64,000 nucleotides of DNA from an uncultured Dehalococcoidales bacterium (lineage in GTDB: Bacteria > Chloroflexota > Dehalococcoidia > Dehalococcoidales > BS750m-G39), in NCBI GenBank assembly GCA_964505425.1, contig CAZDHX010000005.1, positions 3,726-67,725 on the forward strand. Direction: 5' to 3'. Position numbers and translations under genes: made by a program. The notes below the pieces were generated by a model. That model was not told the DNA's origin and searched no databases. It worked only from the letters and a program-made list of their open reading frames with translations. Below, piece after piece: positions 2,087 to 61,938 of the stretch. Every line of letters starts with the position of its first letter. The first letter of the stretch is position 1.

Positions 2087-3121
2087 TTACCTCCCCTCCG
2101 TCCCCCGCGTTCTGAAATTAAGCTCTGTCCCGCAGAACTTGCACCTTGGGCCGGCAAGCCCGATTACGTTAGCCTGGTAGCCTGACCTCTGCACAACAAG
2201 CCGCCCGCAGGAAAAGCAGATGGTAGATTCGGTTTTATGCCCGGGGACATTACCGGCATAGACGAACTTGAGCCCGGCCTCCTTCCCGATGTCATAGGCA
2301 TGCTCTATGGTGGATACCGGGGTCGGGGGCAGGTGCGCCATATGGTGGTGGGGATAAAAGCGGGTCACATGCCACGGCGTTAGCTCGCCGAGTTCGTCCC
2401 TTATCCAGCGGGCGATGCCCCCCAGTTGCTCGTCGTCGTCGTTCATGGTTGGTATAATGTTGGTGACGACCTCAACATGCATGTTCCATCTCTCCTTAGC
2501 CCGCTTGGCAACCTCAAGTATCCCCCGCCACTGGGTTACCTTTGCCAGGTTGCGGTAGAGGGCGTCGCTAAAGCCCTTGATATCAACCCGCCAGGCATCA
2601 AGGTAGGGCCCGATGGTGTCCAGGGCTTCGGGGGTGAGAAAGCCGTTGGTCACATAAACGGTATAGAGGTTATTCTTCTTCGCCAGCCGGGCGGAGTCAA
2701 AGGTATATTCAAACCAGATGCTGGGTTCATTATATGTCCAGGCAATGCCGTCACAATGATAGTGCCTTGCCAGTTCCACGGCGGTCTTGGGCTGGATTTC
2801 CTGGGAGTTAGCCCATGGTTCGTCCTCCGTGGGGCAGGAGATTTCCCAGTTCTGGCAGTCCTGGCAGTGAAAGTTGCATCCCCACCCCCCTATAGAAAAA
2901 GCCAGGGTGGCGGGGTAGAAGTGGAAGAGGGGTTTCTTTTCAATGGGGTCGGGGGCTACCGAGGACGCCTTGGCGTAGTTCATGTTGTAGAGGACGCCGT
3001 CTTTATTGTAATAGACGCGGCAGACGCCGTACTTGCCGGGGGCGATATTACAGCGCCACTGGCAGGTAGCACATTTTACCCTGGAGTTGGGCAGTTTTTC
3101 ATAGAGCATTGCCTCGCGCAT
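2087..3121 (-). CDS. AmmeMemoRadiSam system radical SAM enzyme
   Basis: 344 aa with the CNFHCQDCQNW (CxxxCxxC) radical SAM cluster motif plus an N-terminal Cys-rich segment (CATCQWRC). First gene of the trio. Confidence 0.85.
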   Translation of the reverse strand: MREAMLYEKLPNSRVKCATCQWRCNIAPGKYGVCRVYYNKDGVLYNMNYAKASSVAPDPIEKKPLFHFYPATLAFSIGGWGCNFHCQDCQNWEISCPTEDEPWANSQEIQPKTAVELARHYHCDGIAWTYNEPSIWFEYTFDSARLAKKNNLYTVYVTNGFLTPEALDTIGPYLDAWRVDIKGFSDALYRNLAKVTQWRGILEVAKRAKERWNMHVEVVTNIIPTMNDDDEQLGGIARWIRDELGELTPWHVTRFYPHHHMAHLPPTPVSTIEHAYDIGKEAGLKFVYAGNVPGHKTESTICFSCGRLVVQRSGYQANVIGLAGPRCKFCGTELNFRTRGTEGR

Positions 3122-3167
3122 GATGCTCCTTCACCCCATTATAACACTCGGCTAGTGCGAGTTACAC

Positions 3168-3246
3168 CCTCACCCCCTGTGTCCCCCTCTCCCTTGAGGG
3201 AGAGGGGGAGGACAATAAAAAAGAGGTGAGCATACCAACTCACCAC
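3168..3246. repeat. Composite GC-rich hairpin intergenic repeat, copy A (module A hairpin plus degenerate module B)
   Basis: CCCTCACCCCCTGTGTCCCCCTCTCCC-TTGA-GGGAGAGGGGGAGG followed by AAGAGGTGAG-N8-CTCACC. Same family as the copies at 7182, 42549, 50506 and 61843. Confidence 0.8.
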
Positions 3247-3277
3247 ATATTGTCTCAACAATGTATATGTTATAATT

Positions 3278-4330
3278 ATGTATAATATGGCGTGGGAAAT
3301 ACCGAAATACACTCTTGCAGATGTAGATAATGCAGGGGAACTTCTTGTTCATAAACACCGAGATGAACAAGAGTATACTCTTGCCCTTAAAGTCATTGAT
3401 AATTGGCGTGCCGTGCATGCTTTCCCATTGAATACCATGCAGGTGTACTTACGAAAAAAGGCCAGCATTATAGACCATAATGCTATTGTGGCTCAACGCA
3501 TCAAACGACTTACTTCAATAGAATTAAAGTTGCGACATATGCCTGAGTTAAAACTCTCAGAAATGCAGGATATTGGTGGTTGTAGGGCTGTGGTTAGATC
3601 GGTAGCAGCAGTTAAAAAGTTAGTAAAAGCTTATCATGATAGTGATATTAAGCATAAACTTGATGATTGGGATGATTACATTAAAGAGCCAAAGCTAAGT
3701 GGATACCGTAGTTATCATCTCATATATCGCTACTATAGCGATAAAAAGTCTACCTATAATGATAGAAAAATTGAAATGCAGTTACGCTCCAAACTCCAAC
3801 ATGTTTGGGCTACAGCAGTAGAAACAGTCGGTACATTCACGGGGCAAGCACTAAAGTCAAGCATTGGCGCAAGAGAGTGGTTACGTTTTTTCCAGCTAAT
3901 GGGGACGGTTATTGCCCTGAAAGAGGGTACCGCCCCTGTTCCTAATACACCAACAGACAATAATAGTCTACTGCGAGAGTTACGGGATTGTGCAACTAGC
4001 TTGCAAGTGGAGACTAAATTGTCTGCTTATGGGGCTGCATTGCATGAACTAACAAGGGAAAGGCACAAAGCGCACTTTTATCTTCTAGCACTAAACCCAG
4101 TCGCAAAGACTATTAGGGTTCGAGAGTATAAAAAAGGAGAGTTAAGTAGGGCACTTCGAGACTATACGCCAACAGAACAGGGTATTCGGAAGAAACCTGG
4201 TGGGGAAGCCGTTCTTGTGTCTGTTGACTCAATGGCAGCGTTGCGAAGCGCATATCCTAATTACTTTCTTGATACTGTTAAATTCCGTGAAGAATTGCAG
4301 TCCGCTCTCAGTGGGAAAATCGGCAAGTAA
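3278..4330 (+). CDS. RelA/SpoT-domain nucleotidyltransferase (small alarmone synthetase-like) with a ~150-aa C-terminal extension; toxSAS/CapRel-like architecture
   Basis: 350 aa with synthetase-fold motifs DIGGCRAVV, SGYRSYHLIY and IEMQLRSKLQHVWA. No hydrolase domain. AT-rich, monocistronic, and flanked by repeat copies at 3168 and 4344. The alternative ATG at 3287 is equally possible. Confidence 0.8.
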   Translation: MYNMAWEIPKYTLADVDNAGELLVHKHRDEQEYTLALKVIDNWRAVHAFPLNTMQVYLRKKASIIDHNAIVAQRIKRLTSIELKLRHMPELKLSEMQDIGGCRAVVRSVAAVKKLVKAYHDSDIKHKLDDWDDYIKEPKLSGYRSYHLIYRYYSDKKSTYNDRKIEMQLRSKLQHVWATAVETVGTFTGQALKSSIGAREWLRFFQLMGTVIALKEGTAPVPNTPTDNNSLLRELRDCATSLQVETKLSAYGAALHELTRERHKAHFYLLALNPVAKTIRVREYKKGELSRALRDYTPTEQGIRKKPGGEAVLVSVDSMAALRSAYPNYFLDTVKFREELQSALSGKIGK

Positions 4331-4343
4331 TGGAACTTGCTCA

Positions 4344-4369
4344 AGGGGAGGGGGATAAAGGGGGAGGGT
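4344..4369. repeat. Partial (one-arm) copy of the GC-rich repeat family, reverse orientation
   Basis: GGGGAGGGGGATAAAGGGGGAGGG matches the GGAGAGGGGGATAAAGGGGGTGAGG arm of the other copies. Confidence 0.55.
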
Positions 4370-4411
4370 TTTCCTTGACTACATAGCTACCAAAGGCTAG
4401 ACTTGAGTTAG

Positions 4412-5029
4412 ATGAAGGTTATCGGTCTTACCGGCGGCATTGGCAGCGGCAAGAGCACCGTCTCCGGCTTCTTAGCGGAGCTGGGGGCGACGGTTATTGA
4501 CTTGGACAAGGTGTGGCATGAGGCGCTCAAGCCTGATACCGAGGTGGGGCGGGTGGTGGCGGCTGCCTTCGGCAAGGTGATTGTCACTCCGGAGGGCGAG
4601 ATTGACCGCAAGAGGCTGGGGAAGATAGTCTTTGCCAATCCCGATGCCCTGGCCCGCCTGAATAATATAATGCACCCGTGGATGTATGACACGGTGAAGG
4701 ATCAGCTTGATGAATATCGGCGGCAGGGGGTAGGGGTGGTGGTGCTGGAAGCCCCCCTCCTCATTGATATGCCTCTTCGTTTGAAAAAAGGTACGCCTTC
4801 ATTGCTGGACGAAGTGGACGAGGTCTGGGTAACTTTAGCCCCGGAGCCGGTGGTGCTCAAACGCCTGAAGAAAAAGAGCGGCATGCCCGAAGAGCAGGCG
4901 CTGGCTCGCATCCGCTCCCAGCTGTCTTCCGAGGAGAGAAACAAGCACGCCGATGTAGTCATAGATACCGATTGCCGTCTTAATGAGCTCAAGGCTAAGG
5001 TAAAGAAGCTATGGCAGAGGCTTGCTTGA
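4412..5029 (+). CDS. coaE: Dephospho-CoA kinase
   Basis: 205 aa with the N-terminal P-loop IGLTGGIGSGKST, typical of CoaE. Confidence 0.9.
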   Translation: MKVIGLTGGIGSGKSTVSGFLAELGATVIDLDKVWHEALKPDTEVGRVVAAAFGKVIVTPEGEIDRKRLGKIVFANPDALARLNNIMHPWMYDTVKDQLDEYRRQGVGVVVLEAPLLIDMPLRLKKGTPSLLDEVDEVWVTLAPEPVVLKRLKKKSGMPEEQALARIRSQLSSEERNKHADVVIDTDCRLNELKAKVKKLWQRLA

Positions 5030-6857: not shown

Positions 6858-7181
6858 TTACGTGTCCTCTTTGGTTAGCTCTTGGAAGAAGCAGGTCTTG
6901 TTGCCGGTGTGGCACACCGGACCGGAGGCTTTACCTTTAATCAGAATGGTATCGCTATCGCAGTCCTTCCATATTGATTTGACCTTGATGATACTGCCCG
7001 AGGTCTCGCCCTTGTGCCACAGCTCCTGGCGGCTGCGGCTGTAGAACCACGCCTCCCCGCTATTCAGTGTCCGGCGCAGCGCCTCCTCGTTCATGTAGGC
7101 GAGCATCAATACCTCGCCGGTATCAGCATCCTGAGCGATAGCCGGGACAAGACCCTTTTCGTTGAATTTTATATCTTTCAT
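6858..7181 (-). CDS. hisI: Phosphoribosyl-AMP cyclohydrolase
   Basis: [31 protein letters not shown]...CHTG is the HisI signature. The 26 codons the track adds upstream (to 7259) translate the intergenic repeat ([14 protein letters not shown]) and are rejected. Confidence 0.85.
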
Positions 7182-7267
7182 CAACCTCACCCCCTTTGTC
7201 CCCCTCTCCACTCTTGGAGAGGGGGAAGTGAGGGTTTTGAAGGGGCGAAGCCCCTTCAAACTACCCC
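7182..7267. repeat. Composite GC-rich hairpin intergenic repeat, copy B
   Basis: CAACCTCACCCCCTTTGTCCCCCTCTCCACTCTTGGAGAGGGGGAAGTGAGGG followed by TTGAAGGGGCGAAGCCCCTTCAAACTACCCC. It fills the whole hisA-hisI spacer, and its arm GGGGGTGAGG is positioned as the SD of hisI. Confidence 0.85.
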
Positions 7268-7269
7268 AT

Positions 7270-8022
7270 TTAGCTAGTAGCTAGCGCCTGCTTTAAATCT
7301 ATGTCCCCGGTATAGAGCGCCTTGCCGATTATGGCGCCCTCGGCGCCCAGTGCTTTGAGCATGTTTAAATGGTTCAGCGACGATATTCCGCCGGAGGCAA
7401 TGACCGGCGTTCTGACGGCATTAATAAGCTCGGCGATAGCGGAAAAATTTGGCTCGGTGAGGGTGCCGTCGCGGTTAATATCGGTATAGATAAAGCGACT
7501 CACCCCCAGCTCTACCATAGACTGGGCAAGTTCCACCGCCTCAAGTTGCGTCTCCTGGCGCCAGCCGTGGGTAGAGATATAGCCGTCTCTGGCGTCAATG
7601 CCGACGATAATAGATTCCCGGAAGCGCTGGCATGCCCGCTTAACCAGCCCCTGGTCCTCAACGGCGGCGGTGCCCAGAATGACCCGCTCTACGCCCGCCT
7701 TTAGCAGTTGCTCAATGGTCTCAAGCTGGCGGATGCCGCCACCCAGTTGAGTCGGCACCAGGGCGGCGCTGGCTATCTCGGTGATAATATCCAGATTATA
7801 GACCTCGCCGCCAAAGGCACCATCAAGGTCAACGATATGCAGTCTTGGCGCCCCCAGCGATTGCCACTCCAGTGCCACCTCTACCGGGTCGTCGGAGAAG
7901 ACCGTTTCCTGGTCAAAGTCACCCTGATAGAGGCGGACGCACCGGCCGTCTCTGATATCTATGGCGGGGATGATTTCTATATTAACCCACCTTATAGGTT
8001 GATATTGGAATACTTTCGCCAC
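7270..8022 (-). CDS. hisA: 1-(5-phosphoribosyl)-5-[(5-phosphoribosylamino)methylideneamino]imidazole-4-carboxamide isomerase
   Basis: [25 protein letters not shown] and ASGGIS motifs. ATG at 8022 gives a 14-aa N-terminal extension overlapping the upstream gene. An ATA at 7980 preceded by AAGGTGG would give the typical (M)EIIPAID N-terminus. Confidence 0.85.
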
Positions 8023-13893: not shown

Positions 13894-15006
13894 ATGAAGC
13901 TCTCATGTCTTCAGGAGAACCTGAATCGAGGACTTGGTGTGGTGGGGAAGGCGGTGGCTACCCGAACCACCCTTCCCATAACCAATAACGTCCTCTTAGC
14001 TACTGAAAAGTCCCGCCTGAAGTTAGTTGCCACCAATCTTGAGATGGCTATCAGCTGCTGGATTGGGGCCAAGGTGGAGGAGGAGGGGGCAATCACCGTT
14101 CCCGCCCGCCTTCTAACCGAGTTTGTCAGCTCCCTCCCCAGCGAGAAGGTTGACATCGCCCTTTCCCCTCAGACCAAGACCCTGGGGCTGAAGTGTGCCC
14201 GCTTTGAGGCGCGAATCAGCGGCATTGATGCCAAGGACTTTCCACCGATACCCAAGGTGGCTGATGGTATCACTACCAAGGTTGAGGTAGAGGAACTGCG
14301 TCAGGGGATTACTCGGGTCGCCTTTGCCGCTGCCACTGAGGAGTCCCGCCCCGTGCTCACCGGCGTTGACGCCAAGTTTGAGGGTGATTCATTGACGCTG
14401 GCGGCGGCTGATGGCTTTAGGTTAGCCGTCTATAAGCTACCCCTTGCCTCCCCGGTCAGTAAAGAGACCGAGGCTATTATTCCCGCCCGCGCCCTCTCTG
14501 AGCTAAGTCGGCTTATAGCGGACGAGGAGGCGGTGGAGATAACGGTGAACCCGAGTAAGGGTCAGGCTCTATTTCGCCTGAAGAATATTGAGCTGGTTTC
14601 CCAGCTGGTTCAGGGCACCTTCCCCAATTATGCTCAGCTTATCCCCCAGGGCTACACCACCCGAGCCGTGGTCAGTGTCGGTGATTTCCTGAGGGCGACC
14701 AAGACCGCCTCCATATTTGCCCGCGACGGCAGCGGTATCGTCCGCCTGATGATAGCCCCGGGCAAGCTGGTAGTTTCCGCCCGCTCGGAGGAGATTGGCG
14801 ATGATGTTGGCGAGATTGATGCCGAGGTTGAGGGGGAGGAGGCGAAGATTGCCTTCAACGGCAAGTACCTCACCGATGTCCTGGGCGTCCTTGGTGAAGC
14901 CCAGGTAGCCCTGGAGGCTACCAACCCGTCAAGCCCTGGCGTTGTCCGCCCGGTGGGGGTGGATAACTATATCCACGTCGTCATGCCCATGTTTGTGCAG
15001 TGGTAG
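13894..15006 (+). CDS. dnaN: DNA polymerase III beta sliding clamp
   Basis: 370 aa with MKLSCLQENLNRGL, NVLL, PVLTGV, FNGKYL and VVMPM, typical of DnaN. The last 26 nt overlap the convergent serine recombinase ORF. Confidence 0.9.
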   Translation: MKLSCLQENLNRGLGVVGKAVATRTTLPITNNVLLATEKSRLKLVATNLEMAISCWIGAKVEEEGAITVPARLLTEFVSSLPSEKVDIALSPQTKTLGLKCARFEARISGIDAKDFPPIPKVADGITTKVEVEELRQGITRVAFAAATEESRPVLTGVDAKFEGDSLTLAAADGFRLAVYKLPLASPVSKETEAIIPARALSELSRLIADEEAVEITVNPSKGQALFRLKNIELVSQLVQGTFPNYAQLIPQGYTTRAVVSVGDFLRATKTASIFARDGSGIVRLMIAPGKLVVSARSEEIGDDVGEIDAEVEGEEAKIAFNGKYLTDVLGVLGEAQVALEATNPSSPGVVRPVGVDNYIHVVMPMFVQW

Positions 15007-16462
15007 GTAATTCTAGGGGAATCACGCCTTGAATCTCTACTCTCTCAGTGCTGGCATAAACTTTGATGTCTAGCGCATCCAGAGCCAGCTTTATAATCTC
15101 CGGCGTGCTATCTTGTAGGTTCTTCAATACTCGGTCATAAAGCTGACCTAACCTAATTTTGGCCTCCGCAAGGTTCGCAATATTGTCCCTAGTATTGAGA
15201 AAGTCATTCAGTTTGGCTTCATCTTCATGGCGCAGGCGTTTGAGATTATTCAAGCGGTCTAAGACTTCGTCCTTTCCAAACTCTCCCAACTCTAGAGCTT
15301 GAAGTAAATTGGTTCGACGTTGCTCATAGTTCCGCAAGTTCTTTTCTAGTTCCTTAATCTCAGCCTCTATTGCATCCAAGTTTCCAATGTCGCTTGCTTC
15401 GGCAAGTTGACTCAGTATGATTTCAGGGTTCGCTAATACCGTTTTAGTCTTACTCCAGACTATTTCTTCAAGTTCTCCAGCTCGTACGTACCGGGCTTGG
15501 CATTTCTTACTGGTATTCTCATGGGGTCTGGCACTACTGCACTGGTAATAACGGTATTTTTTATTCAGACAGTGTCCAACAAGTGGCTTTCCGCAAATCG
15601 CACAGTAGGCATGACCTGTAAGCAGGTATTCATGTTTTGGCCGTCCCATTCTTACCCTCGGCCTATTGAGCTGTTCATTGGCGGCTTGGAATATATCTTC
15701 GCTTACTATAGCTGGGGTCACGTTCGGCAATAGGGTATTCTTGAAGTAGGTATTACCGATATAGCCGGAATTGCGGACAATTCGCCTGATAGTGAGGCTA
15801 TGCCATAATTTACGCTTGCTTTCATCGTTTTTGGTGGCTTTGGTGTGCACTCCGCTCTGGTTCAGTCTACGTGCTATTGATACCAAGCTTTCCCCGATTG
15901 CTACCCGGTTGAAAATCTCTCGTACTATAACGGCTTCAACCTGGTTTACCTCACGCCTTTTTGTCTCTTTATTCCAGTCATAACCGTACATGCCGACACC
16001 GGTACCCTGGGGCATTATGCCGCCATTCAGCTTTGCACGTTTCCCTCGCATGGTGCGTTCTCGTATTTTTTCCGCTTCCAGCTTTGAGGCAAAGCCCCGA
16101 ATGTAACTAATCAACTTGCCAAGCTCTGAACTATCTACCGTCTCAGTAACAGCCTCAAGTCTGACGCTGTGCTTTTCAAGTTCCTGAGTAAGTATGACGC
16201 CGTGAGTAGGGTCACGTGATAGCCGATCCAAGCAGTAAACCACTACAATGTCAATATCCCCGATTCGTATCAATTCCCGTAGCTCGTTTAGCTTGGGACG
16301 TTCAAGTGTTAGCCCTGAGTATGCCTCAGAAAAGCGGTAGGCTACGTTATAGCCCTTATCTTGGCAATATGCAAGGCAAGCCTCAAGCTGTGTGTGTAGA
16401 CTAGTTCCTTCCTGTTCTTGGTCTTCGGTGCTTACTCTACAATAGGTAGCTGCGGTTTTCAT
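14981..16462 (-). CDS. Large serine recombinase
   Basis: YCRVSTEDQ catalytic-Ser motif, a resolvase N-domain, a recombinase domain, a Zn-ribbon (CAICGKPLVGH...YYQC) and a C-terminal coiled coil. The start is taken at ATG 16462 (ATGA overlap with the upstream small ORF, GGGGG SD) rather than the track start 16483. Confidence 0.9.
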   Translation of the reverse strand: MKTAATYCRVSTEDQEQEGTSLHTQLEACLAYCQDKGYNVAYRFSEAYSGLTLERPKLNELRELIRIGDIDIVVVYCLDRLSRDPTHGVILTQELEKHSVRLEAVTETVDSSELGKLISYIRGFASKLEAEKIRERTMRGKRAKLNGGIMPQGTGVGMYGYDWNKETKRREVNQVEAVIVREIFNRVAIGESLVSIARRLNQSGVHTKATKNDESKRKLWHSLTIRRIVRNSGYIGNTYFKNTLLPNVTPAIVSEDIFQAANEQLNRPRVRMGRPKHEYLLTGHAYCAICGKPLVGHCLNKKYRYYQCSSARPHENTSKKCQARYVRAGELEEIVWSKTKTVLANPEIILSQLAEASDIGNLDAIEAEIKELEKNLRNYEQRRTNLLQALELGEFGKDEVLDRLNNLKRLRHEDEAKLNDFLNTRDNIANLAEAKIRLGQLYDRVLKNLQDSTPEIIKLALDALDIKVYASTERVEIQGVIPLELPTTAQTWA

Positions 16463-16608
16463 TTCTTCTTTACCCCCTTCCACTTTGGCTTATTCCAGTA
16501 GGGAGACCGGCACTTAGGACAGGTCTTAGGTTCTTTTGGCTGGCGCGGTACCCAAATATGCCCGCAACGTAGGCATTTAAGTATCGGCAGTTCAAAGCTC
16601 TTGTTCAT
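16459..16608 (-). CDS. Small zinc-ribbon protein, translationally coupled to the recombinase
   Basis: MNKSFELPILKCLRCGHIWVPRQPKEPKTCPKCRSPYWNKP has two CxxC pairs. Its stop overlaps the recombinase ATG. The track start at 16644 is probably too far upstream because it overlaps the promoter. Confidence 0.55.
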   Translation of the reverse strand: MNKSFELPILKCLRCGHIWVPRQPKEPKTCPKCRSPYWNKPKWKGVKKK

Positions 16609-40214: not shown

Positions 40215-41786
40215 ATGATTAGCAGAGAGAAGCCTACGATTGGCAAAGGTAACCGGACTGCGACCATCATCAGGGTATCGGACGAGAGCCAGGTGGAGGG
40301 ACACTCACTGGAAGCCCAACGGTTAGGAATTGAGCACTGGTGTCAGCAACGAGGATACGTTCTGTTCAAGGAATACACCGAGGCTGGGGTATCCGCCCAC
40401 ACCGACGAGATCGAGAAGCGGCCGGAACTCCTCCGGCTCCTCCAAGATGCGGAACAAGGGGAGTTCGACATCGTGGTAGTGCACACACTCGACCGATTGG
40501 CCCGGAAACTAAGCATTCAGATGCAAGCCCTATCGCGTTTAGCTAAGGCCGGCGTTGGTTTCGCGAGCGTGAACGACCCTTTTGACGCCACCACTCCTCA
40601 AGGCCGCCTGATGCTCAACCAAATGGGCTCTTACAACGAGTTCTTCTCCGAACTCTTGGGCATCCACGTCAGCAAGACCTTCCGATTCATGGCTGAGTCG
40701 GGGTTGACAGTCGGGCCGGTACCCTTCGGATATCGGCGCCAAGAAAAGCAGCTTCCGCCTGTGAAGGAGGAGCGGGAAGCGGAAGCTGTGAAAGAAGTAT
40801 TTCAACGTCGGGCGGGAAGTCAGTCCACAGGCGAAATCGCTGCCTGGCTCAATGCCCAGGGTTTTTGCACCAGAGAGGGCCATGCCTTCACAGCCCATGC
40901 GGTGAAAGATATCCTGAATAATCGCTATTACTGCGGGTATGTGAAGTACCACGGCGAAGAGTATCCCGGTAAGCACGCCGTCATCATCTCGGAAGACCTG
41001 TTCCAGCGTGTACAAGCCCGAAGGCAACGGCGGCAGCAGGTACGCTCGGTACACGGACCGAAGGGTTTACTCCAGGGGATCATAGCTTGCTGGCACTGCG
41101 GTAATCGGCTTCAGTCAGATCGCCACCGTCAGCTGGTACCCCTCTATCGGGAACGGCATGCTCACGAGTGTCCCACGAACAATTCGTCTATTGTGGCGGA
41201 GGTCATTGATAAGCAGATGGCAACGATTATCCATTCCCTGGGATTGCATCCGAAATGGAGGCAAAGGATGGCCGAGCTTGCCGCAGCAAACTATGACGGG
41301 CCAGACCCAAAAGCGCTAAAAGAGAAGCGCCGTCGCCTCGGCCGGGCTTACGCCGACGGGGCATTTACCGATGAGGAGTATCAAAGACGACTGGCGGAGA
41401 TCAATCATCATCTTGATCAGGCGTGCACCGTAACACCACCCGCTGTCGAAGCAGCTGTAGAACTCTTTACGAATATCCCCATGCTCTGGGCAGAGGCAAC
41501 TCCGGATGAGAGAAGACAGTTGGTGAACCCACTCGTCGAGCTGGTTTACGTAGATCTTGAGACAAAGCGCGTTGCCGCGTTCAAGCCGGCACCGGCATTC
41601 CGGGTGCTGTTTGGTACAGGGATAGAGGTGGCCCCAAACGCACCGGTGCTATTGCTACCCTCGGGAAGAGAAACCCGAGAGAATGTTGGAGATGGTGGAG
41701 ACGGGGGAGAGTTGAACTCCCCGTCCAAAGGAAGCTGCCCAGAATATACTACAAGCTTAGTCAGCTCTTTAATCTCACCCGGCTAG
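40215..41786 (+). CDS. Large serine recombinase whose 3' end overlaps ssrA
   Basis: IIRVSDESQ catalytic motif, FDIVVVHTLDRLAR, a recombinase domain and a Zn-ribbon (CWHCGNRL...HEC). The start is ATG 40215 (AGGAGGAG SD). The last 94 nt read antisense through the tmRNA 3' end. Confidence 0.9.
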   Translation: MISREKPTIGKGNRTATIIRVSDESQVEGHSLEAQRLGIEHWCQQRGYVLFKEYTEAGVSAHTDEIEKRPELLRLLQDAEQGEFDIVVVHTLDRLARKLSIQMQALSRLAKAGVGFASVNDPFDATTPQGRLMLNQMGSYNEFFSELLGIHVSKTFRFMAESGLTVGPVPFGYRRQEKQLPPVKEEREAEAVKEVFQRRAGSQSTGEIAAWLNAQGFCTREGHAFTAHAVKDILNNRYYCGYVKYHGEEYPGKHAVIISEDLFQRVQARRQRRQQVRSVHGPKGLLQGIIACWHCGNRLQSDRHRQLVPLYRERHAHECPTNNSSIVAEVIDKQMATIIHSLGLHPKWRQRMAELAAANYDGPDPKALKEKRRRLGRAYADGAFTDEEYQRRLAEINHHLDQACTVTPPAVEAAVELFTNIPMLWAEATPDERRQLVNPLVELVYVDLETKRVAAFKPAPAFRVLFGTGIEVAPNAPVLLLPSGRETRENVGDGGDGGELNSPSKGSCPEYTTSLVSSLISPG

Positions 41787-42046
41787 CCTCAACTGACCGA
41801 GTCTAGCCAGACCAGCCGATTCTTCTTTCACCACCCTCATCGGCGTTGGGGTGGTGGCACCTCAACTCTTCGGCACCCGGTCCCCGCCCGTTGAGGAGAG
41901 GCTTGGGTGGGCGCGCCGCCTATTTAATTAGGCTGCGTAAGCGAATTCAGGTTCGCCAGTTATTTTTACCACTTGTTTTATGAGGTTAGCGGCACCTCAG
42001 CCTGCAATCCTGTAGCCTACCTCCCCTGTCGAACCCACGCGTCCCC
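41693..42046 (-). ncRNA. ssrA: tmRNA (transfer-messenger RNA)
   Basis: Minus strand reads 5' GGGGACGCGTGGGTTCGACAGG ... GGACGGGGAGTTCAACTCTCCCCCGTCTCCACCA 3'. The acceptor stem pairs with a G3:U wobble (Ala identity), and there is a T-arm and CCA. The likely tag ORF at 41928-41957 is GGC GAA CCT GAA TTC GCT TAC GCA GCC TAA (GEPEFAYAA). Lies 16 nt downstream of smpB. Confidence 0.85.
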
Positions 42047-42548: not shown

Positions 42549-42681
42549 TCACCCCATCCCCCTTTATCCCCCTTTGATAGTGAGCTAACTTAATAGGGTG
42601 TTTAAGAGAAGCACCAGCCCCTCTTTTATTTTATCTTCCCCCTCTCCAAGAATGGAGAGGGGGATACAGGGGGTGAGGTTG
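42549..42681. repeat. Composite GC-rich hairpin repeat, copy D (reverse orientation) plus an extra forward arm
   Basis: The forward arm is TCACCCCATCCCCCTTTATCCCCC (42549-42576). It is followed by GGGTGTTTAAGAGAAGCACCAGCCCCTCTT and TTCCCCCTCTCCAAGAATGGAGAGGGGGATACAGGGGGTGAGGTTG. Confidence 0.8.
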
Positions 42682-42691
42682 ATAATCTCTA

Positions 42692-50505: not shown

Positions 50506-50596
50506 GGGTGTCCAAGAGGGGCGCTTTCTCCTCTTCTATATCCTCCCCCTCTCCTTTGAAGCCTTGAAGGAGAGGGGGATAAAGGGGGTGAGGTAG
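50506..50596. repeat. Composite GC-rich hairpin repeat, copy E (reverse orientation)
   Basis: GGGTGTCCAAGAGGGGCGCTTTCTCCTCTT followed by TCCTCCCCCTCTCCTTTGAAGCCTTGAAGGAGAGGGGGATAAAGGGGGTGAGGTAG. Confidence 0.85.
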
Positions 50597-50605
50597 ATAA
50601 ATAAA

Positions 50606-51010
50606 ATGAAAAAGCTAATTGTTTTAGGCGCTGTAGCTCTAATGGCTCTGCTACTCATAACCTCGGTAGCCAGCTGTCAGCAGCAGCCTCAGCCAGAAGA
50701 GCCGCCCAGCTTGGCGATTATGGTTGAGTCCAATGTCGTTGACGCCGGCTCTTCTTTCATGATCTCAGGCTCAAACCTAGATCCTTATCAGAAGGTATGG
50801 GCTGAGTTCAACTATAAAGCGAGTGACCGGGGAGAGGATGTATCAGTCTACGGTGAGCCCGATGAAGAGGGCACGATTCATGCTGTAATACCCGTTCCAG
50901 AGGATATAGTCCCTGGCGACTATGAGGTCGAGATTTATGTAGGTAAGCACCTTGATGACCGGGAGCTAATAGCTACCCTCCCTATTCATATCCAGGCGAA
51001 GGAAAAATGA
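50606..51010 (+). CDS. Putative lipoprotein
   Basis: Signal peptide with lipobox MKKLIVLGAVALMALLLITSVASC. No family recognised. Confidence 0.6.
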   Translation: MKKLIVLGAVALMALLLITSVASCQQQPQPEEPPSLAIMVESNVVDAGSSFMISGSNLDPYQKVWAEFNYKASDRGEDVSVYGEPDEEGTIHAVIPVPEDIVPGDYEVEIYVGKHLDDRELIATLPIHIQAKEK

Positions 51011-51044: not shown

Positions 51045-51065
51045 AAGGGGGTGAGGTAGATAAAT
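51045..51065. repeat. Solo arm of the repeat family; 21-nt exact duplicate of 50582-50602
   Basis: AAGGGGGTGAGGTAGATAAAT occurs identically upstream of both lipoprotein genes. Confidence 0.8.
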
Positions 51066-51117: not shown

Positions 51118-51618
51118 ATGAAAAAAGTTATTGTGATAGGTATAGCACTAGTTCTGGGACTTCTTCTATTACCCGCTTGCGCTGGTGGCGGGGTATCTCA
51201 GGCAGAGTATGACAAGATAAGTAGCGACCTTGCCACGGCTCAAACGCAAATTCAATCATTGCAGGCTGACTTAGCGACAGCGCAGGCAGAAGTCCAATCA
51301 TTGCAGGGTGATTTAGCGGCAGCGCAAGCACAAGTCCAGTCTCTACAGGCAACTGCAGGGGCAAACGCCGCTGAAACGCTGGCTTACGCTGAGTTTCTTG
51401 ACGTACTTATGTCCCCCGATTACAAGAAGGTCGCTATCATTCCCCGCTTTGATTTTGCGAACGAGCTTGCGTGGCTGGCAGAGCTGGAGAATAGAGCCAC
51501 GGACTTAGGCGACACAAGGCTGAGCGACTATATTGAGGCAATGCAGAAAGGCAGCGCCGCTGCCAAACCCTCGGCATGGGATTATTGCCTCGGAATAATA
51601 GAGGAGAACTCGCAGTAA
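51118..51618 (+). CDS. Putative lipoprotein with a triple 14-aa coiled-coil repeat
   Basis: Lipobox MKKVIVIGIALVLGLLLLPAC, then DLATAQTQIQSLQA / DLATAQAEVQSLQG / DLAAAQAQVQSLQA. Confidence 0.6.
   Translation: MKKVIVIGIALVLGLLLLPACAGGGVSQAEYDKISSDLATAQTQIQSLQADLATAQAEVQSLQGDLAAAQAQVQSLQATAGANAAETLAYAEFLDVLMSPDYKKVAIIPRFDFANELAWLAELENRATDLGDTRLSDYIEAMQKGSAAAKPSAWDYCLGIIEENSQ
51226..51351 (+). repeat. 3 x 42-bp in-frame tandem repeat
   Basis: The units are 51226-51267, 51268-51309 and 51310-51351, and have diverged mostly at synonymous or conservative positions. Confidence 0.85.
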
Positions 51619-57060: not shown

Positions 57061-57089
57061 ATTATAGGTTATCAAAGGAGAAGGGTCAA
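57061..57089 (-). promoter_or_regulatory. Putative pheST promoter giving a near-leaderless mRNA
   Basis: On the minus strand: TTGACC (57089-57084), 17-nt spacer, TATAAT (57066-57061). Only 11 nt lie between the -10 element and the pheS ATG (57049), with no SD. Confidence 0.55.
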
Positions 57090-57090
57090 G

Positions 57091-57119
57091 AAAAAAGAAA
57101 GAGGGGCTGACGCCCCTCT
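57091..57119 (-). terminator. Rho-independent terminator downstream of the R-M methyltransferase (a module-B-type hairpin of the repeat family)
   Basis: On the minus strand: AGAGGGGC-GTCA-GCCCCTCT followed by TTCTTTTTT. Confidence 0.65.
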
Positions 57120-57149
57120 TAGACACCCTTACTGGTTTGATCATTTTCC

Positions 57150-58058
57150 TTAAGGCTCGAACAACTTCGGAGACTTGAATTCCAGCAAAAAGTCTTTGAT
57201 TCGCCTCTCTGCCAGTTTTACATATTCCTGACTTATGTCATACCCAATATAGTGACGATTTGTCTTTATGGCTGCTATTGCCGCTTGCCCACTCCCTATA
57301 AAGGGGTCTAGAATCACTTCCTCAGCAAATGTATAAAGCTGGATTAATCTATAAGGTAGTTCTACGGGGAAAGGCGCCGGGTGACCTACCTTGCGTGCCG
57401 ACTCAGCAGAGAAAGTCCAAACGCTTTTAGTGAACTCCAAAAACTCCTCCTGTGATATGGTGTTCTGCCGTTTATGGACGTTTCTTCTGCTGAACATGCC
57501 CTTGGAAAAAATCAGAATATACTCATGAATATCCCTTAAGGTCGGATTGGCTGCACTCAGCCAGCTTCCCCAAGCCGTAGAAGGACTAGAACTAGAAGCC
57601 TTATTCCAGATAATTTCCCCTCTCATTAGAAAGCCCAACTCTAACATATCCTCCACAATAAAAGCATGGAGGGGAATATAAGGTTTTCTGCCTAAATTGG
57701 CAATATTTACACAAGCTCTCCCCCCAGGGACAAGAACTCTATAAACTTCTTTCCATACTCGCTTCAGAAATTCACGATATTGTTCCAGCGTCAGGTTCTC
57801 GTCATACTCTTTCCCCACATTATAAGGTGGTGAGGTAACCATCAGATGAACGCTATCGTCTGGGAGTTCCAGCATGTTCTCACTGGTTCTACAAAAGATT
57901 CTATCTAAAAATTGAGGTGGGACAGAAGCTTCAACATATTCAGCCCTTTGTTCTGCCGGCAAGCCTTCGTACAACTTGCTGGTATAAAAGGCGGTTGAGT
58001 CATGATTTATCCTCCCCGGGGAGCCAAAGGGACTTGTTTGTGTACCTCTTCTCCTCAT
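57150..58058 (-). CDS. Beta-class N4-cytosine/N6-adenine DNA methyltransferase (SPPY motif IV, so probably N4-C)
   Basis: Motif IV TSPPYNVGKEY precedes motif I DPFIGSGQAAIAA (beta permutation; N6_N4_Mtase type). The start is ATG 58058, in an ATGA overlap with the upstream ORF. Confidence 0.85.
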   Translation of the reverse strand: MRRRGTQTSPFGSPGRINHDSTAFYTSKLYEGLPAEQRAEYVEASVPPQFLDRIFCRTSENMLELPDDSVHLMVTSPPYNVGKEYDENLTLEQYREFLKRVWKEVYRVLVPGGRACVNIANLGRKPYIPLHAFIVEDMLELGFLMRGEIIWNKASSSSPSTAWGSWLSAANPTLRDIHEYILIFSKGMFSRRNVHKRQNTISQEEFLEFTKSVWTFSAESARKVGHPAPFPVELPYRLIQLYTFAEEVILDPFIGSGQAAIAAIKTNRHYIGYDISQEYVKLAERRIKDFLLEFKSPKLFEP

Positions 58059-58687
58059 TCCTCCCTCCAGTAGTCTACCCATCTCTGGTAAGGATGATAG
58101 TCTATCTCTGGCTTTTGCCAGCTTATTTCAATAACTTTAGCTTCCTTGCTTTGTATTAAGGACAACAGAGCTTCTTTTGTAATCTCAGCACCGCGAGGGT
58201 TGGTGCCTGGCTTGGGTAATTTGATATATCTTTCACTACCCATCTTCTCAAGCAAATGACGCTGTGTTTCCACTGGTATGAAATAAAGCCCACCCTTACC
58301 ACCCCAAAAAATCTGTACAAATATAATATCGCTTGAAGGATAATAACTTTCCTGAAATTCTTTTGCGTTTTGGGCATCAACTGTCCATACTAATTTAACC
58401 CCACCGAACCCTTTGCCAGTAATTGTTTTTATAGAAACAGGCTGCCCAAATAACTTAACATCTACCTCAGGCTCGGTGATAGGAATATCTGTCTGCACAT
58501 TGCTCTCGCCAAATTTGTAGATAAGCAAGGAGACTATAATGTTTTCACGAACAGAGCCTACTTGCATACCTATCTTTCCAGCCCTTGAGCACTCTAACTC
58601 GGCAATTCTAAAAAGTTGGGGTAAGCGCTTTTTAATTTTAAGTTTAAGTGCTTCATCCTCAAATAGTTCAACCAAGTGACTGCTCAT
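58055..58687 (-). CDS. Putative type II restriction endonuclease (partner of the adjacent methyltransferase)
   Basis: 210 aa, AT-rich and translationally coupled to the MTase. The TEPEVDVKL segment could be a (D/E)xK motif. The family was not identified by eye. Confidence 0.5.
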   Translation of the reverse strand: MSSHLVELFEDEALKLKIKKRLPQLFRIAELECSRAGKIGMQVGSVRENIIVSLLIYKFGESNVQTDIPITEPEVDVKLFGQPVSIKTITGKGFGGVKLVWTVDAQNAKEFQESYYPSSDIIFVQIFWGGKGGLYFIPVETQRHLLEKMGSERYIKLPKPGTNPRGAEITKEALLSLIQSKEAKVIEISWQKPEIDYHPYQRWVDYWREE

Positions 58688-61842: not shown

Positions 61843-61929
61843 CAACCTCACCCCCTTTATCCCCCTCTCCAATCTTGGAGAGGGGGAAAGATATTAAAAA
61901 GAGGGGCTTGCGCCCCTCTTAAACACCCC
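61843..61929. repeat. Composite GC-rich hairpin repeat, copy G (best-preserved, type copy)
   Basis: CAACCTCACCCCCTTTATCCCCCTCTCCAATCTTGGAGAGGGGGAAAG (module A) followed by AAAAAGAGGGGCTTGCGCCCCTCTTAAACACCCC (module B). Confidence 0.85.
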
Positions 61930-61938
61930 GCTTTCGGG

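Follow-up and report, generated by a model that had tools for sequence, protein, structure and literature searches.

The question raised by this locus is what is encoded by a lone gene of the RelA/SpoT type, which lies in a 64,000-nucleotide stretch of DNA from an uncultured Dehalococcoidales bacterium (contig CAZDHX010000005.1 of assembly GCA_964505425.1), this whole stretch being called the window hereafter. The open reading frame (ORF) is called at 3278-4330 on the plus strand and encodes 350 amino acids (aa), with the residue numbers used below counting from the ATG at 3278. The initial annotation considered it to be a candidate fused toxic small alarmone synthetase (toxSAS) resembling CapRel, in which a toxic synthetase domain is joined to a C-terminal antitoxin and sensor domain. 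We argue that toxin and antitoxin are fused here in one polypeptide of the CapRel subfamily, with a CapRel-like mechanism and encoded by a horizontally acquired gene, a reading to which we assign a probability of about 0.8.

All the motifs quoted in the initial annotation, i.e., DIGGCRAVV, SGYRSYHLIY, EMQLRSKLQHVWA, HFYLLALNP and AVLVSVDSMAALRSAYPNYFLD, are present in the 350-aa ORF. The sole Pfam domain in the protein is RelA_SpoT (residues 73-179), and it was rightly stated that no HD, TGS or ACT domain is present, as judged by Pfam; the NCBIfam models of the long RelA/SpoT homologues (RSH) give weak, local matches. The best solved relative is CapRel-SJ46, a Salmonella tRNA pyrophosphokinase (PDB 7ZTB/9ERV), which is matched at E 8e-42 over residues 10-338 with an identity of 37% over 319 aligned residues, and a profile made from 114 homologues reaches CapRel-SJ46 at E 1.6e-71. 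Since the alignment to 7ZTB extends to residue 338, the C-terminal region that was previously left unassigned is also covered. Moreover, the PADLOC model PDC-S33 matches the protein over its full length with 396 bits, and CapRel-SJ46, with its sequence rebuilt from the PDB alignment, matches PDC-S33 and no other PADLOC model, with 285 bits. From the match shared by the two proteins it follows that PDC-S33 covers the fused CapRel family, and from the two scores that the window protein lies nearer to the centre of PDC-S33 than the SJ46 archetype does. No mention of PDC-S33 was found in the literature searched. Judged by its sequence, the window gene is a member of the known and already catalogued fused CapRel family, although a fairly divergent one.

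It could be argued that the protein is a RelQ/RelP-like physiological small alarmone synthetase or an enzyme of the FaRel/Tas1 type that makes (pp)pApp, with nucleotides rather than tRNA as the substrate. The substrate is not readable from the sequence by the tools applied, and the RelA_SpoT fold and the catalytic residues are common to all these enzymes, but the RelQ/RelP-like proteins match only the catalytic core, with E 1e-9 and weaker for the sequence and E 4e-17 for the profile, and the NCBIfam RelQ equivalog NF053588 gives 54 bits versus a cut-off of 320. The PDB entries that PMC11782079 names for FaRel2 (8PU4) and Tas1 (6OX6) appear neither in the sequence and profile matches at E<=1 nor among the top 50 fold matches of Foldseek. 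In addition, tblastn finds close relatives of the host without the gene, unlike what holds for a housekeeping small alarmone synthetase (SAS), and neutralisation of the YXXY type via the donor site, which is predicted for the window protein as discussed below, accompanies the toxSAS that target translation (PMC11782079). We regard this alternative as quite improbable. The placement nearer to CapRel than to the other SAS and toxSAS subfamilies is based on the search and profile scores.

The fused layout that was proposed initially is recovered over the full length of the chain, in the homology to CapRel-SJ46, in the conserved residues and in the fold, with the parts as follows.

3278..3481, plus strand: residues 1-68, a helical extension at the N-terminus with homology to the corresponding helices of CapRel-SJ46.
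3482..3922, plus strand: toxSYNTH (RelA_SpoT) catalytic domain, residues ~69-215, with R74 and R103 (coordination of the ATP adenine), D98 and E166.
Within 3482..3922, plus strand: G-loop S141-G-Y143, from the alignment to CapRel-SJ46.
3923..4042, plus strand: helical linker or anchor 1, residues 216-255, joining toxSYNTH to the sensor domain.
4043..4225, plus strand: pseudo-zinc-finger sensor/antitoxin domain, residues 256-316, cysteine-free.
4226..4312, plus strand: C-terminal anchor helices, residues 317-345, holding the switch region.
4253..4264, plus strand: YXXY neutralisation motif Y326-P327-N328-Y329, equivalent to Y352-P-N-Y355 of CapRel-SJ46.

The AlphaFold2 model of the protein, calculated with the 114-sequence alignment, has a predicted local distance difference test score (pLDDT) of 93.4 and a predicted template modelling score (pTM) of 0.90. 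In the model, the anchor helices 228-242 and 244-253 are followed by the sensor domain (strands 267-273 and 278-284, helix 286-303 and strand 310-315) and then by the C-terminal helices 319-325, 327-330 and 334-344, with the short helix 327-330 lying over the YXXY motif. The beta-beta-alpha-beta topology of residues 256-316, among which there is no cysteine, is that described for the pseudo-zinc-finger domain (a three-stranded sheet with a connecting helix). The top matches in the PDB by Foldseek are 7ZTB_B, 9ERV_A and 7ZTB_A, with E 1e-23, probability 1.00 and a TM score of 0.68, and the root-mean-square deviation (rmsd) of the model to the open crystal form is ~10 A over 356 columns. The pTM speaks for a confidently predicted, fixed placement of the domains relative to each other. 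The same domains together with a high pTM and a large rmsd to the open form are as expected if the model is closed, and it may be in the closed autoinhibited pose, as AlphaFold predicted for CapRel-SJ46.

The residues on which the mechanism of CapRel-SJ46 depends can be followed through the alignment. In CapRel-SJ46, R79 and R116 are the ATP-coordinating arginines, between which the YXXY motif (Y352, Y355), forming a 3-10 helix, is intercalated when the protein is closed; mutation Y155A of the G-loop tyrosine abolishes the defence, and substitution of the scaffold residues A77, V338, L339, A341 and A351 gives constitutive toxicity (PMC9712102). In the window protein, R79, R116 and Y155 correspond to R74, R103 and Y143, respectively, Y352-P-N-Y355 corresponds to Y326-P-N-Y329, and four of the five scaffold residues are kept (A77 as A72, V338 as V312, L339 as L313 and A351 as A325). 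Among the 114 homologues, R74, R103, Y143, V312, L313, Y326, P327 and N328 are invariant, while for Y329 and A325 the conservation is 90% or more. D98 and E166, which we take to be the catalytic acidic residues of RSH synthetases, are also invariant. The C-terminal region is the antitoxin/sensor module of CapRel by its anchors, its pseudo-zinc-finger, the YPNY at 326-329 and the conserved interface residues, and, as far as sequence and predicted fold can tell, all the defining features of a fused CapRel are present.

The module that would do the sensing is also the one that varies. In the homologue alignment, the mean pairwise identity of the sensor domain is 0.48, compared with 0.69 in toxSYNTH and 0.74 in the YXXY anchor, making the sensor domain the most variable structured region, as reported for CapRels. 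This variability is consistent with the binding of a phage protein.

From the homology to CapRel-SJ46, we infer the tRNA substrate, the autoinhibition, the phage trigger and the defence phenotype, with the following pathway. At rest, the pseudo-zinc-finger domain of the C-terminal part would be folded back, with YPNY 326-329 placed between R74 and R103 and the ATP donor site plugged. A phage protein that is bound by the variable pseudo-zinc-finger domain would stabilise the open state and release the enzyme. The toxSYNTH domain, acting as a pyrophosphokinase, would then use ATP to pyrophosphorylate tRNAs at their 3' CCA end, stopping translation, and the infected cell would arrest, which amounts to abortive infection. 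Regarding the trigger, the initial annotation drew the comparison with CapRel proteins that recognise capsid protein; the family likeness holds, while a capsid trigger is not implied, since CapRel-SJ46 also senses the unrelated non-capsid protein Gp54 of phage Bas11 (PMC11578894).

We turn to how the gene came to be where it is. Upstream and divergent lies the radical SAM enzyme of the AmmeMemoRadiSam operon (2087-3121, minus strand), of which the named relatives at 74-78% identity are from Dehalococcoidales or Chloroflexota, and downstream lie coaE (4412-5029), rplU and rpmA, the latter two encoding L21 and L27. The CapRel ORF has 41.9% GC and a GC content at third codon positions (GC3) of 0.35, while both neighbours have 56-57% GC and GC3 of 0.69-0.72, in agreement with the earlier remark that the gene is AT-richer than both; its GC3 is the lowest among the 59 long ORFs of the window (median 0.61, standard deviation 0.10). 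The site was compared with 80 related loci, which are metagenome contigs (L081-L160) with a radical SAM protein of 77-97% identity. The order AMMECR1-MEMO-radical SAM / coaE-L21-L27 is conserved across these loci, and a CapRel homologue is found by tblastn in none of the 80. Both flanking genes can be placed in 56 of them, the gap between the radical SAM gene and coaE being 98-420 bp in 31 and 0.9-3.7 kb in the other 25, where the content is mostly of lower GC and consists of unrelated cargo. The gene is thus clearly accessory, as its composition had suggested to the initial annotation, and conserved synteny of the gene between the same neighbours, which would have spoken for a resident one, is not observed. 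It is horizontally acquired, a lone cassette between the divergent AmmeMemoRadiSam and coaE promoters.

Three states of the site can be distinguished, namely empty (~100 bp), repeats only (280-420 bp) and 0.9-3.7 kb of cargo; examples are L081:2020-2979, L089:2504-6000, L096:5720-6000 and L106:3332-3429, with 3122-4411 in the window. Its edges in the window are the following.

3122..3164, minus strand: conserved region with the leader and promoter of the radical SAM gene, common to the insert-free relatives; left edge of the hotspot.
4375..4403, plus strand: conserved coaE promoter-like site TTGACT-17-TAGACT, common to the insert-free relatives; right edge of the hotspot.

The cargo of the relatives is diverse. 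There are pairs of 108 and 107 aa with no family match, which are like toxin-antitoxin pairs in size and arrangement only, one of them being carried by the closest relative (L081, with flank identities of 97% and 95%). There are also a Panacea/SocA antitoxin and its partner of 138 aa, a DUF4917/SIR2-like protein with a match to PADLOC PDC-S21, an AAA_15/AAA_21 ATPase with a match to NsnB/PDC-M55A, an NYN-domain protein, a fusion of 2'-5' RNA ligase and metallophosphatase, an Fe-S protein with 4Fe-4S Pfam matches and, from translations read by eye, glycosyltransferase-, nitrilase- and threonine-dehydratase-like proteins. The radical SAM/coaE site in this Dehalococcoidales-like lineage is a hotspot whose cargo varies and is in part related to defence.

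A similar mobility is indicated for the entire CapRel family. At least 6,357 relatives of the protein are found at E<=1e-5, spread patchily over Acidobacteriota, Proteobacteria, Chloroflexota, Actinomycetota, Verrucomicrobiota and others. In IMG/VR viral contigs, 133 relatives are found; no full-length fused CapRel is found in BFVD. The nearest non-self homologues, with 63-66% identity, are in other genomic contexts. In 14 of 80 genome loci with CapRel homologues, a transposase gene of the insertion sequence (IS) family IS1595 lies within a few hundred bases, as listed here.

Genome loci L005, L011, L018, L022, L027, L031 and L033: IS1595-adjacent CapRel homologues.
Genome loci L036, L038, L039, L045, L051, L056 and L063: IS1595-adjacent CapRel homologues.

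An IS1595-family transposase gene (L241:3797-4747) also adjoins a homologue that is among those closest to the window protein. This suggests a recurrent IS-associated route of spread for CapRel genes. Neither a partner antitoxin nor a conserved neighbour gene is found in the 80 genome loci. The second-largest cluster of neighbour genes was rejected as an artefact; in several loci its ORFs are antisense to, and overlap, the IS1595 transposase gene, and its representative ORF, read by eye, seems to run into aspartate-semialdehyde dehydrogenase. The CapRel family behaves like mobile defence cargo.

Mobility of this kind is what would also be seen if the gene were a selfish fused toxin-antitoxin of CapRel architecture, an addiction or stabilisation module maintained by its mobility and giving no phage defence here, and such a reading gains from the accessory context, from the IS1595 elements that often adjoin the homologues and from the non-defence cargo that the hotspot holds too, the defence role of the window gene being proposed by analogy. 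Classic addiction, however, needs differential decay of the antitoxin, which is impossible for a fused protein, and phage defence is the role of the characterised CapRel members (PMC9712102, PMC11578894). Moreover, of the structured parts it is the sensor domain that evolves fastest, as an arms race predicts, and relatives hold other defence candidates at the same site. We consider a purely selfish role unlikely.

Several points weigh against reading the gene as a CapRel-like defence protein. Its identity to the sole characterised relatives is ~37%. The fifth scaffold residue differs, A341 of CapRel-SJ46 being replaced by S315, which is conserved in at least 90% of the 114 homologues and is thus the norm of the subfamily. 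L280 of CapRel-SJ46, which is needed for activation by the capsid protein, is replaced by T259, and therefore the trigger of CapRel-SJ46 is not transferable to the window protein. The evidence for the closed pose consists of the pTM and the rmsd to the open form given above. Metabolic cargo is present at the same hotspot in some relatives, and location alone is no proof of defence. We know of no cultivated phage-host system for the host lineage.

Next we consider whether the gene is in a state to be expressed. The likely true start is the ATG at 3287, giving 347 aa, in agreement with the public annotation, in which the 100% identical protein P0001 has 347 aa, and with the consensus of the 114 homologues, which begins 'MAW...'. 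The gene and its putative promoter are as follows.

3287..4330, plus strand: coding sequence of the CapRel-family fused toxSAS, with the ATG at 3278 as the alternative start.
3250..3276, plus strand: possible promoter TTGTCT-N15-TATAAT, identified by eye, ending 10 nucleotides (nt) before the ATG at 3287.

The promoter scan that was used requires a spacer of 16-18 nt and therefore does not report this pair. TATAAT hexamers are present at 3271-3276 and 3281-3286, each directly preceding a candidate ATG (3278 and 3287). No Shine-Dalgarno sequence is visible by eye before the start, and therefore the mRNA may, speculatively, be leaderless or near-leaderless. Between the CapRel gene and coaE no convincing intrinsic terminator is seen, and an Rfam search of the interval gives no match. 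The ORF search gives no second credible ORF in the 1.29-kb interval between the radical SAM gene and coaE, and this, together with the divergent upstream gene and the promoter-like site of coaE itself, agrees with the earlier description of the gene as monocistronic.

Should the gene be an inactive remnant, recently transferred and unexpressed or non-functional, a codon composition far from that of the host would be natural, and so would the absence of a Shine-Dalgarno sequence and of a clear terminator. The reading frame, however, is intact and of full length, every invariant residue of the family is present and a plausible -10/-35 pair lies directly upstream. We hold this to be highly improbable.

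The insert is bracketed by GC-rich repeats, which the initial annotation linked with the gene. The repeats are real. They are, however, not specific to the gene, being members of a dispersed family that frames the hotspot of the host, with the following copies in the window.

3165..3245, plus strand: full copy of the dispersed GC-rich repeat, consisting of module A and a second hairpin.
4345..4369, minus strand: inverted partial copy, corresponding to the outer part of module A, with 21/25 bases matching; right-hand frame of the insert.
7180-7270, 42596-42685, 50506-50600, 51045-51065, 57077-57128 and 61843-61930: further intergenic copies.

Module A has the form CCTCACCCCCTTTATCCCCCTCTCC-loop-GGAGAGGGGGA, and module B has the form AAAGAGGGGC-loop-GCCCCTCTTAAACACCC, a GC hairpin followed by a T/A-rich run, and is terminator-like. 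In the copy at 3165-3245, module A reads CCTCACCCCC..TCCCCCTCTCCC-TTGA-GGGAGAGGGGGA, a 12-bp GC hairpin (z = -3.8 versus shuffles), and the second hairpin is followed on the minus strand by a T-run, also terminator-like. The 25-mer core occurs 5 times in the window at <=3 mismatches versus 0 expected by chance, several of the copies adjoin low-GC3 ORFs, and Rfam gives no match for the repeat family. In many relatives, the hotspot starts with module A in plus orientation 46-85 nt from the start of the radical SAM gene and ends with module A in minus orientation ~50-100 nt before the start of coaE. Such inverted frames are present around differing cargo (L081, L086, L095, L112, L114 and L119) and around no cargo (L096, L098 and L154); L089 has two tandem cassettes with an extra module A in minus orientation between them, and the more distant relatives L106, L108, L121 and L148 have repeat-free sites of ~100 bp.

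Because the same frames are present around other cargo or no cargo, they belong to the host site and not to the CapRel gene. The proposal that the repeats are the own terminal repeats of the gene was rejected, since its closest homologues elsewhere (63-66% identity) are without repeat frames and the relatives keep the frames whatever the cargo. An integron cassette is not supported either, the gene having its own promoter-like site and the frames being inverted copies of a dispersed repeat; no integrase-like ORF is found in the 1.29-kb interval or its immediate neighbours, no search for attC or intI having been made. The repeats could be insulators of the two housekeeping promoters, remnants of miniature inverted-repeat transposable elements (MITEs) or participants in cassette exchange. 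On the last of these, it is conceivable, though doubtful, that the site is a repeat-framed cassette site of the Dehalococcoidales lineage, with the copies of the CCTCACCCCCTTTATCCCC... element being the substrates of an unrecognised recombination or capture mechanism that swaps defence and toxin-antitoxin modules. If this is true, the repeat-framed exchange would be a functional analogue of integron cassettes, unrelated to them, with the CapRel gene being one cassette. The variability between radical SAM and coaE is probably ordinary hotspot biology.

Other copies of the repeat have neighbours of their own. A type II restriction-modification pair at 57150-58687 (minus strand), composed of a ThaI-family endonuclease (58055-58687) and an N6/N4 DNA methylase (57150-58082), has GC3 of 0.38-0.44 and directly adjoins the module-B repeat at 57077-57128; it is likely a second acquired defence locus of the window. 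The hisI-like ORF at 6858-7259 (minus strand) begins inside the repeat copy at 7180-7270, with its first ~26 residues being translated repeat, and its true start is probably a downstream Met (MKDIKF...). An exact direct repeat of 21 nt is present on both sides of the ORF at 50606-51010 (at 50582-50602 and 51045-51065).

Elsewhere in the window, a large serine recombinase with Resolvase, Recombinase and zinc-ribbon domains is present at 14981-16483 (minus strand), where a ~25-kb stretch of lowered GC3 (~15-40 kb) has one of its ends; the other end of the stretch is near the transfer-messenger RNA (tmRNA) gene at 41693-42046 (minus strand). This stretch may be an integrated element. A tmRNA-linked island was considered and dropped, as the direct repeat from the 3' end of the tmRNA that would bound it was not found at a length of >=14 nt. 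In addition, three tandem 42-nt (14-aa) repeats at 51226-51351 lie inside a 166-aa ORF (51118-51618, plus strand) that has a weak, below-threshold Pfam match to phage scaffolding protein.

The phyla listed for the family in the founding paper do not include Chloroflexota (PMC9712102), and the present gene adds a clear fused CapRel member to the Dehalococcoidales-like Chloroflexota, a host lineage that was not highlighted before. The scores on PDC-S33 and the number of relatives also imply that the CapRel proteins studied so far are peripheral members of a very large family. Moreover, a one-gene sensor and effector could serve as a handle on the virus proteins that are detected by uncultivated, slow-growing sediment and subsurface bacteria, and the hotspot between two housekeeping promoters could serve as a marker locus for the turnover of defence genes in metagenomes. 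The understanding of how CapRel works is unchanged by the gene.

Finally, we compare the window protein with the known systems. With RelQ and RelP (SAS1/SAS2), it shares the core fold of the synthetase, but these are proteins of ~200-230 aa with no C-terminal sensor and are encoded by chromosomal core genes. PDC-S33, to which the full-length hidden Markov model match was obtained, is a bioinformatic label only. FaRel2/ATfaRel2 of Coprobacillus sp. D7 (8PU4/8PU2) is a toxSAS system pyrophosphorylating tRNA, in which an element like the pseudo-zinc-finger domain neutralises the toxin by placing a YXXY 3-10 helix in its ATP donor site (PMC11782079). Neutralisation of the YXXY type by such an element is also predicted for the window protein, whereas FaRel2/ATfaRel2 is bipartite and heterotetrameric, has a circularly permuted antitoxin and gives no sequence match at E<=1. 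The unfused systems CapRel/ATcapRel and PhRel/ATphRel (gp29/gp30 of mycobacteriophage Phrann) share the toxSYNTH lineage, and the C-terminal domain of the fused CapRel has its homologue in their antitoxin (PMC9712102); in them the toxin and the antitoxin are separate genes, unlike in the window, where a single ORF is found with no antitoxin candidate beside it. CapRel-SJ46 of the Salmonella prophage SJ46 (Zhang et al. 2022, PMC9712102) differs in being encoded by an enterobacterial prophage gene, the window gene being a chromosomal lone cassette, and the window protein is ~23 aa shorter, the loops of its linker and of its sensor domain being shorter. Like CapRel-SJ46, it has a single ORF with the N-terminal helices, toxSYNTH, the anchors, a cysteine-free pseudo-zinc-finger and the YXXY motif.

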